A stretch of 52,751 nt of DNA from Candidatus Aenigmatarchaeota archaeon (GTDB lineage: Archaea; Aenigmatarchaeota; Aenigmatarchaeia; Aenigmatarchaeales; JACQIB01): the NCBI GenBank assembly GCA_043799675.1, contig JAZDNN010000040.1:1-52751 (forward strand), written 5' to 3'. Each line of letters opens with the position of its first letter. Position 1 is the first letter of the stretch. A program made the translations under genes and the position numbers. The notes beneath the pieces were generated by a model. It did no database searches and had not been told where the DNA came from. It saw nothing but the letters and a program-made list of their open reading frames with translations. Below, piece after piece: positions 15,502 to 19,709 of this stretch.

Positions 15502-17055
15502 ATGAAGTTCGATTACTTCGCGACCAACCGCGTCGAGGTGCCGCCGGCAAAGCGGAAGGACTACATGCGCCTCTGTTTCTTCCACGTCACATCGCAGTAT
15601 GACCTGAGGCATCACCTGAACTCGCTTCCGAAGCACATCCAGGCGAGGATGCTCGTTGACAGGAACATGGATTTCCGCGTCGGAATGAGGAAGGAGGACG
15701 CATGGGCTACCGACCCCAGGGGCTTCTCGACCATGATGTACGGCGAGGTAGGTTTCGCCTCGAATATTATGTTCGACGGCAGGAATTTCAGGTACAGGCT
15801 GTACTGTTCGGACGACCTGAAAAAGCGCAATCTTAACATACTGTTCGAGCCCATGCGGCTGCATGAAAAGACCGGCCCGGATGCGCACGGCCTTAATGTC
15901 ACCAGGGAGGACGAGAAACTGGAGCCAATCGAGGCGCCGTTCACCTGGGACGACATAAGGAATCATTACAAGCATGGTCTCGAGTTCGAGATGAAGGAAG
16001 CGAGACAAAGGTTCGGGTGGCACGGTCCCAATCTTGACGGACTTGACATCGATGAAAATTATGAAAAGTTCGAAGAGGCAAGATGCCTGGAGGACGAAAA
16101 GGAACGCGCAAAGAAGGAACTTCATATCAACCGCATCGTACGCAGGAACCTTGAAAAAAGCAATCAGTGGCGTGAAAGCCTGAAGGAAAAGTGCAATCTG
16201 TTCAAGGAAGTTCGTGCTGACATCGCAAAGAAGCTAGGAAGACCGGCAATGCTGAACGTGGCCTACGGGACCATGCCTTTCCTGCAGAACGACTGTCTCG
16301 ACGATTCGATTGCCGCCTGCTGGCCGGTCATGTATGCGTTGCCCTACACGGACGGCATGAATGACAGGACGCTCGCCCTTCTTGACGCGGAGATATACGT
16401 AAGGCCCGAAGGCGGATGCACGCACATCGTCTCGTTCTATCCATACACGTCGCCGACCGAGGAAATAGCCGAGCTCAATGCGCAGTTGCTGAAGGAAGAC
16501 GGACCCATGCGCGCGATGTTCGCGCATGAAATGCTTGAGTCATTCATGTGCGAGAAATTCCGGTCGATTGGCTATGACTTCCTGGGATACATGGTCGACA
16601 GGGGGTATCGGGAATGTATCCAAGCTGAAAAGGTTTCGCAGGGGAACGAAAGGCACCGCCGGCTCAACAGTATGCTGGACAGGCTCGGCTATTCGGACTG
16701 CACGGAAGCGCTGCTGAAACGGTACGAGGAAGCGGCCGATGCGGTAATCAAAAGGATTGACGCGGAGAAACCTATGAAACGCGGTATTCTGGAGTCGGTG
16801 ATGGAGAGGTATGGGATGTTCCGCTACAAGCCTGACATGATAATCAGTGCGGCGGAACACCTGATGGGCTGGAAGTACGCCCACATGCTTGCGATGAAGA
16901 CCGGCTGTGAAGAATGGAGGCAAAGCATCCAGTCGGGCAAACTGCCGAAGTCCGGAATGGGGAACATAAAGCTCAGACAAATGGATGCCTTTATGTTGAG
17001 GGACGATGCTTCTGAAAAGTGCGAAATCCAGGCAACGGATGATTCGGAAGAATGA
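15502..17055 (+). CDS. Hypothetical protein (517 aa)
   Basis: Long ORF with coding-like composition; central coiled coil; AHEMLE motif; no family recognised. Confidence 0.75.
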   Translation: MKFDYFATNRVEVPPAKRKDYMRLCFFHVTSQYDLRHHLNSLPKHIQARMLVDRNMDFRVGMRKEDAWATDPRGFSTMMYGEVGFASNIMFDGRNFRYRLYCSDDLKKRNLNILFEPMRLHEKTGPDAHGLNVTREDEKLEPIEAPFTWDDIRNHYKHGLEFEMKEARQRFGWHGPNLDGLDIDENYEKFEEARCLEDEKERAKKELHINRIVRRNLEKSNQWRESLKEKCNLFKEVRADIAKKLGRPAMLNVAYGTMPFLQNDCLDDSIAACWPVMYALPYTDGMNDRTLALLDAEIYVRPEGGCTHIVSFYPYTSPTEEIAELNAQLLKEDGPMRAMFAHEMLESFMCEKFRSIGYDFLGYMVDRGYRECIQAEKVSQGNERHRRLNSMLDRLGYSDCTEALLKRYEEAADAVIKRIDAEKPMKRGILESVMERYGMFRYKPDMIISAAEHLMGWKYAHMLAMKTGCEEWRQSIQSGKLPKSGMGNIKLRQMDAFMLRDDASEKCEIQATDDSEE

Positions 17056-17064
17056 AATAATTGA

Positions 17065-17214
17065 TGGTCGCCAGCTTCTTGGGGTTCCCGCCTTTTCGGC
17101 AGTACAGCCCAAATCGATGACGCGATTCACTACCGTGATTCCGCCTCTTTTTGGTCTCAAAAAGATGTTTCGGAACGGGAACGGGTCTTACCACGTCTCT
17201 TTGGCCGGCAACCA
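17065..17214 (-). rRNA. rrf: 5S rRNA with a 31-nt BHB-bounded insertion (17138-17168)
   Basis: Helix I TGGTTGCCGGC/GCTGGCGACCA; ACCCGTTCCCGTTCCGAA|CACGG loop C signature; GTACT...GGGAAC loop E region; 150 nt with the insert, 119 nt without. Confidence 0.9.
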
Positions 17215-17236
17215 AGTCTGATTGCGCCTTCGAAGG

Positions 17237-17244
17237 TATTTAAA
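17237..17244 (-). promoter_or_regulatory. BRE/TATA promoter of the 5S rRNA gene
   Basis: AAAAAC-TTTAAATA on the minus strand about 23 nt upstream of helix I. Confidence 0.65.
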
Positions 17245-17260
17245 GTTTTTGTCGACAGGT

Positions 17261-17641
17261 TTAGCGGTAAGAGTCCAGAATTTTCCTGATTAAGATTGCT
17301 TTTCTGCTTTCTGTAAAACCTACCAAACTTCCAAATTTTGTCATGTTGCTTTTGCCTAATACTAGCAGCGCCCAACAATCCATTGTTGCCCTGCCGGTGC
17401 CTGCCGCATGGTCCAGATATATCCGCGATTCTACCCCGGCCTTTTCTAGCATCTTCTGCACGGTCAGTAGCAGTTTCTTATCGGAATTGCTAATTTTGAT
17501 TTTACGATCCCATTGTGGATACTCTTTTCCATTTTTCTTTTTACACCCGCGTCGCATTATTGGAGTTCCTTCGCCGTCTGCAAATCCTCGAATGTATTTC
17601 ATCTGTTGACTCTGCGGCCAGTTCAACATTTCCGAATACAT
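17261..17641 (-). CDS. Free-standing single-motif LAGLIDADG homing endonuclease family protein
   Basis: YIRGFADGEG motif followed by IKISNSDKKLL...L, LVGF...RK pattern; visibly AT-richer than its neighbours. Confidence 0.88.
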   Translation of the reverse strand: MYSEMLNWPQSQQMKYIRGFADGEGTPIMRRGCKKKNGKEYPQWDRKIKISNSDKKLLLTVQKMLEKAGVESRIYLDHAAGTGRATMDCWALLVLGKSNMTKFGSLVGFTESRKAILIRKILDSYR

Positions 17642-17735
17642 ACTGTACGATTAGTTGCTCCGAATAATAAGCTTTGTCCGAAGGTCCAGCCGACTTTTTA
17701 TTCGGGCTATCCGAACTAGGTATGAGGTGAAAGAT

Positions 17736-18020
17736 ATGATGTCGACTTTACCGGTTGATCTGAAGAAAGTGAAAAAGGAGGATATCGACAAGTCCATCTG
17801 CAGGGTGGGGATGATAGCCGAGCTGGATGCTGTCAGCTTCTACGAGCAGATGGCGGCAATGACCGACAACCACGGCATAAGGAAGATGCTGCTCGACATC
17901 GCCAAGGAGGAGAAGACACACATGGGCGAGTTCGAGGCGTTGCTGCTCAGATTGGACAGGGAGCAGGTAGACGAGATCGCAGCCGGCAAGAAGGAAGTCG
18001 AGGAGAAGGCCGGAAAGTAG
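17736..18020 (+). CDS. Small ferritin-like/rubrerythrin-family protein
   Basis: AELDAVSFYEQ and DIAKEEKTHMGEF di-iron motifs; SD GAGGTGA before ATG 17736. Confidence 0.88.
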   Translation: MMSTLPVDLKKVKKEDIDKSICRVGMIAELDAVSFYEQMAAMTDNHGIRKMLLDIAKEEKTHMGEFEALLLRLDREQVDEIAAGKKEVEEKAGK

Positions 18021-18066
18021 TCCGGTCCTTCCTTCCGTTCTTAAGCCTTCCAGTGCTGGCATTGGC

Positions 18067-18240
18067 ATGCCAGAACAGATAGGAGAGTGCAACACCCTCC
18101 TTGCGGTGCCGGTCGGGAATGAAAGGCACGTGATTTGCTACGGGATCGAATGCGGGCCCCGTATAGGCAGATTCTTTAACACAGGAATGATGTGTTGCGA
18201 AAGGTCCAAGTATGACAGCCTGCCGAAAAGGCAACTATAA
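18067..18240 (+). CDS. Small Cys-rich hypothetical protein (57 aa, not in the ORF track)
   Basis: Manual translation MPEQIGECNTLLAVPVGNERHVICYGIECGPRIGRFFNTGMMCCERSKYDSLPKRQL*; fills the gap between two + strand genes. Confidence 0.45.
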   Translation: MPEQIGECNTLLAVPVGNERHVICYGIECGPRIGRFFNTGMMCCERSKYDSLPKRQL

Positions 18241-18266
18241 ATTCTTTTCATGCGAAGCAGCCACCC

Positions 18267-18818
18267 ATGGCGGTCCTGCAGGTAAGGAGGCTGGGTGCAA
18301 GCAACCATCCGGCAGTTCCGAAGGGATGGACGGAGGAGCTCTGCGAACTGGCTCTCAACGAGCTTCATCGCCAGGAGCTGGGTCTGCTCGAGGATTGCAC
18401 GATCAGGCGGATGCCGGCAGACGGCATGATAAAGCGCTCGAACGGTTCCGTTTTTCTGGACGGCAACAGGCTCGTCCGGCGGTACGCCGACGGGAATAAT
18501 CCTTACCTTTTTTTCACGCCCCGCCAGACCGTTCTTGCGGCCGGACCCGAACATATGCTGATACGGAGGGAATGCGCCGGGTACGGGCAGGACGGGGTGG
18601 CGATAGTGGACCTTGACAACGGCATGGCCGGCTTCCACAGCCGCATATCGGTCAATTATCTCCTTCATGAGCTGGGACATTCTATCTATGGATTAAGGCA
18701 CCATCGCAGCGGAGCGAAGGTCTGCTCAATGAACAACTACGGAAAGAACGAGAACGTCCTGCATTACTGCCTCGGTTGCCGCGCGAAAGCGAGAAGGGTG
18801 GAAAAGGAACCGACCTAA
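18267..18818 (+). CDS. Divergent archaemetzincin-like zinc metalloprotease
   Basis: HELGHSIYGLRH followed by C-S-M Met-turn and YCLGC. Confidence 0.7.
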   Translation: MAVLQVRRLGASNHPAVPKGWTEELCELALNELHRQELGLLEDCTIRRMPADGMIKRSNGSVFLDGNRLVRRYADGNNPYLFFTPRQTVLAAGPEHMLIRRECAGYGQDGVAIVDLDNGMAGFHSRISVNYLLHELGHSIYGLRHHRSGAKVCSMNNYGKNENVLHYCLGCRAKARRVEKEPT

Positions 18819-19462
18819 CCGTAAAATTCGCCGCTTCCGTTCCCCGTCATCCATATCGCGATGTCCAGCTCTTCCGGCGGGATTTCAAGCTGTTTGGCAA
18901 GCTGGAGGAAAATCTTTTCGTTTTCAGCATACGCTTTCCTGTTCAGCTTCCCTGCCTGGCCTCTCAGCAGGTTGTTTCTTTCCATGAAGTTCTGGACATG
19001 AATGTCCAAAATCGCAAGCCCGTAAATCCCGATGTTGCGCATGAAGTGTGACGCCAGCTTAGGCCCCATTCCCTTCACATTTTCAACGAGCCATTCCCTC
19101 AGCTCTTCTTTTGGCAGCCCGAGCTGCTGTTTGATTGACGGAATCTGTCCTCTTGCCTTGTGCAGGTATTCCGACTTCTTTTTCGAGAATCTCACGCCTT
19201 CCATGCATTTGTGTATCTGGTGCGGATTGGCCGTGAAAAGCATTCCGCATTCCTTCAACCGGTTGATTGTGGCTCTTGCCGTCTTGGCGGAGGATTGTGC
19301 GGTCTGCAGGCAGAACATCAGCTCGGAGGTGATGTGCTCATCGCTCCTGTCGTTTGCCTGAGCCAGGAATCCCTTGATTACCGGCTTGTACCTCTCGTAT
19401 GTCTCAAGAAGTTTCTTTTCCTCTTCTTTGTCAAGGGTCAGCTCAGTTAGTCGGTCTTGCAT
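18815..19462 (-). CDS. ogg: N-glycosylase/DNA lyase (8-oxoguanine DNA glycosylase, HhH family)
   Basis: ELMFCLQTAQSSA, VKGMGPKLASHFMRNIG, AILDIH, ELDIAIW; the track's N-terminal extension overlaps tRNA-Tyr and is rejected. Confidence 0.9.
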   Translation of the reverse strand: MQDRLTELTLDKEEEKKLLETYERYKPVIKGFLAQANDRSDEHITSELMFCLQTAQSSAKTARATINRLKECGMLFTANPHQIHKCMEGVRFSKKKSEYLHKARGQIPSIKQQLGLPKEELREWLVENVKGMGPKLASHFMRNIGIYGLAILDIHVQNFMERNNLLRGQAGKLNRKAYAENEKIFLQLAKQLEIPPEELDIAIWMTGNGSGEFYG

Positions 19463-19502
19463 GATTAGGATGCGCTGCCAAACGATAAAAGGGAAGGAAT
19501 AG

Positions 19503-19575
19503 ACCTGTAAGGGAACAGGTGGAAGTACGCTTCCACCGTTCGGTGGACAGTAGTCCACCTGAAACCGTAGGTTTC
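19503..19575. repeat. Cluster of tandem short hairpins 3' of tRNA-Tyr
   Basis: ACCTGT/ACAGGT, GGTGGAAG/CTTCCACC, GGTGGAC/GTCCACC and GAAACC/GGTTTC inverted repeats. Confidence 0.7.
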
Positions 19576-19585
19576 TCTTGATGAT

Positions 19586-19709
19586 TGGTCCCGCCTGGGA
19601 GATTTGAACTCCCGGCCCCCTGATATCTGCTTTCCGAGCAGCGACTAAACACCCACGCTCAGCGCGCTGGGCTACAGTCAGGTGCTCCACCAGACTGAGC
19701 TAAGGCGGG
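19586..19709 (-). tRNA. tRNA-Tyr(GUA) with a 47-nt canonical 37/38 intron (19625-19671); CCA encoded
   Basis: CCCGCCT/AGGCGGG acceptor (C1-G72), CCTGA-CT GTA G/A-TCAGG, GGGAG-TTCAAAT-CTCCC; BHB helix CTGT/GCAG. Confidence 0.95.

Follow-up and report, generated by a model that had tools for sequence, protein, structure and literature searches.

A free-standing LAGLIDADG endonuclease gene beside a 5S rRNA gene with a mini-intron in an Aenigmatarchaeota archaeon: a putative collaborative homing pair

The 52,751-nt stretch of a Candidatus Aenigmatarchaeota archaeon analyzed here (contig JAZDNN010000040.1, hereafter the window) carries a free-standing open reading frame (ORF) for a LAGLIDADG homing endonuclease directly upstream of a 5S ribosomal RNA (rRNA) gene, whose loop C contains about 31 extra nucleotides in the Rfam alignment. 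By its predicted secondary structure, this insert represents an intron of the bulge-helix-bulge (BHB) type at the very site where nine relatives of the endonuclease ORF reside within 5S genes. We consider it reasonably probable that the enzyme cuts intron-less 5S genes, that the mini-intron protects the resident 5S gene, and that both are copied together during repair. Such a pairing was proposed earlier from the sequence of the window itself (hereafter the original prediction), and the comparison with related loci lends it support through the linkage of the family to 5S genes, the intron-borne relatives at the same site, and a relative's allele that lacks both elements.

All nine ORF-bearing introns (394-414 nt) lie at one site, between CCGAA and C(A/T)CGG, and fit one canonical BHB register, which consists of a 4-bp exon-exon helix, a 3-nt bulge, a 4-bp central helix, a 3-nt bulge, and a 6-bp intron helix, with cuts assumed after the second bulge base on either side. 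The introns form 2-4 of the 4 pairs in the exon-exon helix, 3-4 of the 4 pairs in the central helix, and all 6 pairs in the intron helix. The intron helix (helix B) covaries between lineages (GUGGGA/UCCUAC, GUAGGA/UCCUAC, AUAAGA/UCUUAU, and GUACGA/UCGUAC). Its 3′ strand coincides with the codons for the conserved Ser-Tyr-Arg at the C-terminus, so that the end of the protein and the RNA motif are one sequence. The assumed cut positions were checked on the transfer RNA (tRNA) gene for tRNA(GUA) in the window, whose intron at 37/38 fits the register with 5/5 and 4/4 pairs. Because the nine introns occupy the position of the window's mini-intron, they point to loop C of the intron-less 5S gene as the probable target and imply that the 31-nt insert splits it. 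The recognition site would thus be the loop C junction, and the family seems to be specialized on this single site of the archaeal 5S rRNA gene, CCGAA to C(A/T)CGG.

Some features of these loci are recorded for their own sake. The tRNA(GUA) gene, located at 19589-19709 on the minus strand with a 47-nt BHB intron, is detected by Rfam (53.8 bits), although ARAGORN finds no tRNA in the whole window. Some of the intron ORFs lack a stop codon and continue in frame into the 3′ exon of the 5S gene (L021 1205-1289; L025, L026, and L031). The database proteins P0007, P0012, and P0016 end in KHGS or ELGS, and such ends would be expected if translation stopped at the UAA within the conserved 5S GUUAAG.

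The 31-nt insert of the window fits the same register at the same site as the nine ORF-bearing introns, with 4/4 pairs in the exon-exon helix (helix A), 4/4 in the central helix, 5/6 in the intron helix, and two bulges of 3 nt each, AAA and AUC. Among 20000 shuffles of the insert, 6 match 4/4 and at least 5/6, and the minimum-energy fold displays the BHB motif. Removal of the insert leaves exons of 44 + 72 = 116 nt, and the 5S genes of intron-less relatives measure 115-121 nt, mostly 116. Splicing is predicted to give a loop C junction with exactly the sequence found in the intron-less relatives. BHB introns need no maturase, since they are spliced by EndA and RtcB, and both proteins are encoded in the window's genome: the splicing endonuclease EndA on contig C10 (PF01974, 84.5 and 56.6 bits) and the ligase RtcB on contig C16 (PF01139, 524.5 bits). 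The two EndA matches lie in adjacent, separate open frames (contig C10, 51469-52295, minus strand), which suggests a two-unit enzyme. Two-unit splicing endonucleases are linked to relaxed intron recognition.

Natural alleles of the locus were recovered from contigs of four sediment DNA runs placed on positions 16700-18000 of the window. A 5322-nt contig (run X3, record 19) matches 17065-17137 with 0 differences, skips exactly 17138-17168, and continues along 17169-17248 with 6 differences. In the same contig, 61 other letters replace 17249-17735, and the match then resumes over 17736-18000 with 27 differences. This contig comes from a near relative that has the same locus with neither the mini-intron nor the ORF. 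Record 17 of run X3 likewise skips the 31 nt, and record 23 of run X4 has the same ORF-less joint, from 17248 to 17736. Contigs of runs X1 and X4 contain a mini-intron that is 18 nt longer, and none of the contigs placed from the four runs spans the ORF. Independently of these contigs, the intron-less locus of G004, a genome of the window's taxonomic family, and the metagenome locus L021, which has a 400-nt ORF-bearing intron, are syntenic with 82-99% identical flanks, and their alignment breaks exactly at the loop C site.

These observations can be joined into a proposed mechanism. EndA would cleave the pre-5S RNA at both bulges, and RtcB would join the ends to yield a normal 116-nt 5S rRNA. 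The endonuclease, as a dimer, would cut intron-less 5S genes at loop C, and the resident 5S gene would be spared, its recognition site being interrupted by the 31 nt. When a cut allele is repaired with this locus as the template, the mini-intron would be copied together with the endonuclease cassette about 80 bp away, in the manner of collaborative homing. The family's site, which names the target, the window's 5S gene, which is split there, and the double-empty alleles together lead to this cut-and-shield reading. Our confidence is high for the anatomy of the locus and moderate for the activities, namely splicing, cleavage, sparing, and co-conversion, which we infer; the overall estimate given above reflects this combination.

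The protein itself looks functional. The 126-aa ORF is intact, matches Pfam LAGLIDADG_3 (E 2.6e-10; 40.8 bits, with the cut-off at 22.5), and contains a single LAGLIDADG motif, YIRGFADGEG. The description in the original prediction of a single-motif LAGLIDADG ORF is correct. In a family alignment of 15 rows with the window protein as the reference row, the protein retains all 10 invariant and 10 nearly invariant residues. Gly19, Asp22, Gly23, Glu24, and Gly25 are invariant in the 15 sequences, including the acidic residue of DGEG. The AlphaFold2 model built from this alignment has a mean predicted local distance difference test (pLDDT) score of 95 and an element order of alpha-beta-beta-alpha-beta-beta-alpha (helices 10-24, 55-67, and 97-106; strands 25-36, 39-52, 73-78, and 89-94). 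Foldseek matched 42 PDB chains at E <= 0.001, led by the archaeal intron-encoded I-Vdi141I and followed by I-CvuI, I-CreI, and I-MsoI, all four with a probability of 1.00 and query TM-scores of 0.60-0.67.

A model of two copies scored 0.78, whereas the best of three controls scored 0.01. Of the proteins solved as pairs of one chain, 20 of 30 attained the mark used for two-copy models, compared with 1 of 23 solved as single chains, and since similar dimers have already been solved, the pass of the window protein may reflect likeness to them and is no proof of binding. At least 96% of the contacts agree between model runs, and the pLDDT of the partner is at least 87. The modeled interface runs along the LAGLIDADG helix (residues 8-24), and Glu24 contacts Glu24 of the partner. 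The models agree with the homodimer expected for a single-motif enzyme, in that they bring the two acidic motif residues together, and the homing-endonuclease fold is predicted with confidence. In comparison with the intron-borne L021 copy, the ORF has a nonsynonymous value (pN) of 0.20 and a synonymous value (pS) of 0.82, and its end branch in the protein tree is 0.19 vs a median of 0.25. We consider that the ORF probably encodes an intact homodimeric LAGLIDADG homing endonuclease.

The positions of the features at the locus are listed in Table 1. The ORF and the 5S gene are co-oriented with 48 nt between the end of the ORF and the 5S start. Since the ORF stop is followed by 16 nt, the TATA-like box, and then the 5S start at 17212, the ORF is located outside the 5S gene, and it is also outside any larger ORF. 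The layout given in the original prediction, with a co-oriented ORF that is in neither an intron nor an intein and stops 16 nt before the box, is therefore confirmed, as is the AT-richness of the ORF relative to its surroundings (G+C 0.42-0.46 vs 0.52-0.57 on either flank). The box CTTTAAATA is common to the 5S genes of L022 and L004, upstream of each. The AT-rich box TTATTATT stops 22 nt short of the ATG of the ORF and may be the promoter of the endonuclease gene, so that the ORF apparently stands free with a promoter of its own.

Table 1 Features at the 5S rRNA locus of the window.
Feature	Position	Strand	Basis or remark
LAGLIDADG homing-endonuclease ORF, free-standing, 126 aa + stop	17261-17641	minus	ORF list, Pfam
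5S rRNA gene	17066-17212	minus	Rfam 44.7 bits vs cut-off 38
5S rRNA 5′ exon, 44 nt, last bases CCGAA	17169-17212	minus	Rfam alignment, BHB register, 31-nt skip in relatives' contigs
Predicted BHB mini-intron, 31 nt, ORF-less, loop C of 5S rRNA	17138-17168	minus	BHB register, shuffles, fold, contigs
5S rRNA 3′ exon, 72 nt, first bases CACGG	17066-17137	minus	Rfam alignment
TATA-like box TTTAAATA of 5S gene	17237-17244	minus	16 nt past ORF stop, 24 nt before 5S start
487-nt segment with whole ORF and flanks	17249-17735		replaced by 61 other letters in near relative's contig
Intergenic stretch, ORF to divergent rubrerythrin-like gene	17642-17735		sequence

The window is contig C4 of a 749-kb metagenome bin with 45 contigs and 83% completeness. 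The upstream neighbor of the ORF is the divergent rubrerythrin-like gene, which starts at 17736 (Pfam Rubrerythrin, 25.6 bits). In three genomes of the window's taxonomic family (G001, G003, and G005), an Ogg-type glycosylase gene is located immediately upstream of the 5S gene. The same two genes are about 1.6 kb apart in the window (region 17736-19690 noted), where an unassigned 183-aa ORF lies between them together with the rubrerythrin-like and LAGLIDADG genes.

The endonuclease family is small, rare, and patchy, and it is spread over archaeal phyla. A search of 5.8 billion proteins returned 8 matches to the window protein, and an exhaustive profile-free search returned 6 cluster representatives below E 1e-10. 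Within the phylum, members occur in 2 of 371 genomes, the window's genome and G027 (207.5 and 190.1 bits), and the next best match in the 371 genomes, at 70 bits, comes from other LAGLIDADG domains. Further members were found in Bathyarchaeia and Nitrososphaerales records and on metagenome contigs. No close relative was found in viral contigs, where the single match has 22% identity.

In 20 of the 21 family loci, the 5S gene contains the ORF or lies at most about 60 nt from it. The ORF is inside the 5S gene at the loop C site in nine loci (L004, L016, L017, L021, L022, L023, L025, L026, and L031), directly upstream and co-oriented in six (the window, L018, L024, L030, L032, and G386), directly downstream in three (L019, L029, and L038), and divergent at a distance of about 60 nt in two (L027 and L028); at L033, the ORF is cut by the contig end. 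Since several of the loci are near-duplicates (L025/L026, L027/L028, L019/L029/L038, and L018/L033), the independent cases are fewer than 21. A profile built from the 5S genes of the window's order found no 5S match at eight more distant LAGLIDADG loci (L034-L037 and L039-L042). With 20 of 21 loci linked, the co-occurrence of homologs with 5S genes and introns, on which the proposed pairing depends, is borne out.

In G027, the 5S gene consists of a 5′ exon to CCGAA, a 394-nt ORF-bearing insert, and a 3′ exon from CTCGG, and the reading frame of the ORF begins with the translated 5′ half of the 5S gene. The only visible 5S copy of this genome is thus split by the 394-nt intron, and for this reason it went unscored in the standard 5S covariance search. 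This is a practical warning that 5S genes with large introns escape the standard covariance model and routine annotation.

The original prediction named 5S or tRNA genes as targets. The intron-borne relatives at loop C support the 5S part, whereas the tRNA part has no indication in its favor. In G027, more than 800 nt separate the ORF, which is inside the 5S gene, from the two tRNA genes on its flanks. tRNA genes were rejected as alternative targets, as no member was seen in or against a tRNA gene among the family loci. Separately, the G027 locus (L004) contains weak tmRNA-like (transfer-messenger RNA) and YrlA-like matches at 453-635 on the minus strand, beside intron-bearing tRNA genes, and this segment may be an unusual or permuted tRNA gene.

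Free-standing copies at other loci indicate how the window's arrangement may have arisen. At L019 and L029, the OR​F lies just after an intact 5S gene and retains the last exon bases and the intron leader of its intron-borne sisters. These traces indicate that the copies came out of an intron, and the window pair may by the same token represent an escaped endonuclease gene rather than a precursor stage. Loop C of the 5S genes at L019 and L029 reads CCGCAC, with the change one base from the insertion site, and this may be a target-site change that gives immunity. At L019, L029, and L038, CCGCAC replaces the near-universal CCGAAC (5S gene at L029 442-554). In the protein tree, free-standing copies fall into at least three separate groups, and the base of the tree is poorly supported, with 13 of 25 inner branches open.

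The window's ORF is not bordered by exon relics. Its upstream 119 nt and downstream 48 nt were compared in 14 local alignments with the exons and leaders of L021, L022, and L004 and with the window's own 5S gene, with 500 shuffles each, and in all 14 a share of 0.25 or more of the shuffles scored as high as the real sequence. A faint similarity suggested by a multiple alignment is given no weight.

At the Nitrososphaerales loci, the ORF abuts or overlaps the 5′ end of the 5S gene, which leaves no room for a separate promoter and suggests co-transcription. Among 31 Nitrososphaerales genomes, 10 have a 5S gene of 137-138 nt, in which an additional piece of 17 nt is located a few bases to the 3′ side of the loop C site (L018, L030, and L032; genomes G371-G392). 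The family ORF is found in 2 of the 10 genomes with this piece vs 0 of 21 without it (2/31, G371 included), an association that is weak because the genomes are kin. A scan of the piece revealed no canonical BHB that restores a normal 5S RNA, and the piece may be a retained expansion.

Inserts without an ORF are more widespread than the enzyme among the window's relatives. Loop C inserts of about 30-65 nt occur in 7 of 35 relatives with a detected 5S gene, the window included, and among these seven carriers the window alone also has the family ORF. The inserts occupy three or more positions, and G017 has two (the other carriers' 5S genes are L071-L076, in G003, G016, G021, G012, G005, and G017). 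Strict BHB thresholds with a restored loop C are reached only by the inserts of G012 and the window. The G005 insert is at the window's site and begins with the same five bases, and this genome has no family ORF. A tblastn search for ORF remnants beside the 5S genes of 34 relatives yielded only a distant LAGLIDADG domain near the G005 5S gene, about 740 nt upstream at the end of another ORF, with an Ogg-like gene between. As to co-inheritance, one near relative is without both inserts, and G005 has a similar mini-intron without the ORF.

Several points weigh against the collaborative interpretation. Inserts in relatives without the enzyme indicate that a mini-intron persists without it. The relative with the empty allele is about 10% divergent in the neighbor gene (27 differences in 265 nt), and two separate gains or losses could give the same picture of double absence. 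The window's genome may have a second 5S gene besides the one detected, because the assembly is 83% complete. The locus contexts leave out the four closest protein relatives, P0002-P0005. At L027 and L028, the 5S gene next to the intact ORF is uninterrupted, and its loop C sequence is CCGAAC followed by TTGG, one base off the exon junction of the sister introns; either the protection of these genes is unexplained, or their enzyme may be inactive or differently specific. The target is also only weakly symmetric. The intron-less site had been described as pseudo-palindromic, and its symmetry, with at most 5-6 of 11 symmetric positions at any center and 5 of 11 at the insertion site, is indeed above the chance expectation of about 2.75 of 11; even so, it is a poor palindrome, and the partial symmetry arises in part because the DNA encodes an RNA helix. 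The palindrome argument is accordingly weak.

The same observations can be read in other ways. The endonuclease gene might have left an intron-borne copy, possibly through duplication of the 5S region and subsequent exon decay in one copy, and might now be decaying beside a 5S gene that was already immune; the mini-intron would then be an independent, older, ORF-less remnant, and nothing at the locus would be mobile any more. The exon bases and intron leaders kept by the free-standing L019 and L029 copies, the premature stops that break the L023 and L019 copies, the ORF-less inserts in six other relatives, and the G005 mini-intron with its shared site and first five bases would fit such a history. 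The window's own ORF does not resemble a gene in decay, since it is complete, keeps every conserved residue, has no long branch, and shows a low pN relative to pS against L021. The 14 relic tests around it were negative, and the relative's contig is without both inserts together. We consider this stranded state, the main alternative, unlikely.

A further alternative is that the protein no longer cuts DNA and serves the host by binding to the 5S gene or to 5S RNA, for example in a regulatory role or as an aid to processing, which would account for its place beside 5S genes even outside an intron. Persistence of the 5S linkage in four arrangements, the suggested co-transcription in Nitrososphaerales, and the uninterrupted 5S genes at L027 and L028 would suit a host function. 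On the other hand, all aligned family sequences share the motif's acidic catalytic residue, BHB introns require no maturase, and the rare and patchy occurrence (2/371 in the phylum; 2/31 in Nitrososphaerales) is the pattern of a selfish element and not of a host factor, so that domestication seems improbable. Finally, the contig might join strains with different 5S alleles, in which case the ORF would not truly lie outside the gene. The genome is a bin of many contigs, and several 5S alleles coexist in related sediment samples; a chimera of an ORF-intron allele with a mini-intron allele, however, would be expected to show exon sequence in duplicate on the sides of the ORF, which was not observed, and the layout with the ORF upstream recurs in the independent records L018, L024, L030, L032, and G386. 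An assembly artifact is very improbable in our judgment.

The closest functional parallel to the proposed pairing is the cyanophage endonuclease F-CphI with the psbA intron, the arrangement for which the name collaborative homing is used in the account considered here (PMC6083498). In both cases, a free-standing endonuclease gene adjoins the target gene, which is a putative target in the window, an ORF-less intron occupies the target site, and the intron would block self-cleavage and gain mobility from the neighboring enzyme. The window differs in that it belongs to an archaeal chromosome instead of a phage and has a 5S RNA gene instead of a protein gene as the target. Its 31-nt BHB intron would be spliced by proteins, whereas the psbA intron is a self-splicing group I intron, and its enzyme is a LAGLIDADG protein and not an Endo VII-type protein. 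Cleavage and protection were measured in the phage system and are deduced here.

In fold and intron type, the window is close to the endonucleases of archaeal 16S and 23S BHB introns (I-Vdi141I, I-DmoI, and I-Tsp061I). I-Vdi141I, its best structural match, is described as a LAGLIDADG endonuclease of an archaeal rRNA BHB intron (PDB 3e54; PMC2602781). Long endonuclease-bearing introns coexist with short ORF-less ones here, as in the 16S rRNA genes of Thermoproteales, for which long endonuclease-bearing and short BHB introns are reported (PMC4496867). Unlike in the 16S and 23S systems, the host gene is that of 5S rRNA, the window gene does not lie within the intron, its product of 126 aa is unusually small, and the hosts are small-genome (DPANN-type) archaea, Bathyarchaeia, and Nitrososphaerales rather than Thermoproteales. 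T4-type phages offer a third comparison, with free-standing homing endonucleases such as mobE and seg and 'intronless homing' (PMC2790892, PMC6083498). There too, the gene lies between conserved genes, has its target in the neighbor, and spreads by co-conversion of the flanks, whereas the enzymes are GIY-YIG or HNH proteins of phages, and protection is given by sequence differences and not by an intron. The CCGCAC loop C beside the L019 and L029 ORFs may be an archaeal parallel to the latter.

The literature searched, including the portions of PMC7714728 and PMC11270868 that were available, yielded no description of introns in the 5S rRNA genes of archaea. A survey of Candidate Phyla Radiation bacteria reports that none of the 5S genes contained an insertion of at least 100 bp (PMC11270868). 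We tentatively propose, as a possibility that deserves serious consideration, a dedicated and previously undescribed LAGLIDADG system at loop C of archaeal 5S genes, which switches between riding in a BHB intron, standing free beside a 5S gene protected by a mini-intron, and standing free beside a 5S gene protected by a point change. All of these states and empty sites would coexist among close relatives, so that natural alleles could reveal every stage in the life cycle of a homing element.

Archaeal 16S and 23S genes are known to harbor mobile endonuclease-bearing introns, and 5S rRNA is the smallest and among the most conserved of the ribosomal RNAs. If the proposed pairing is correct, collaborative homing would be extended beyond phages for the first time, and likewise to an intron that is not self-splicing. 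A 31-nt protein-spliced intron would then be able to shield a neighboring selfish nuclease, a role demonstrated to date only for a group I intron of a phage, and the 126-aa protein would be a compact endonuclease whose target can be named from sequence alone. The pairing would also explain the scattered tiny inserts in the 5S genes of small-genome archaea.

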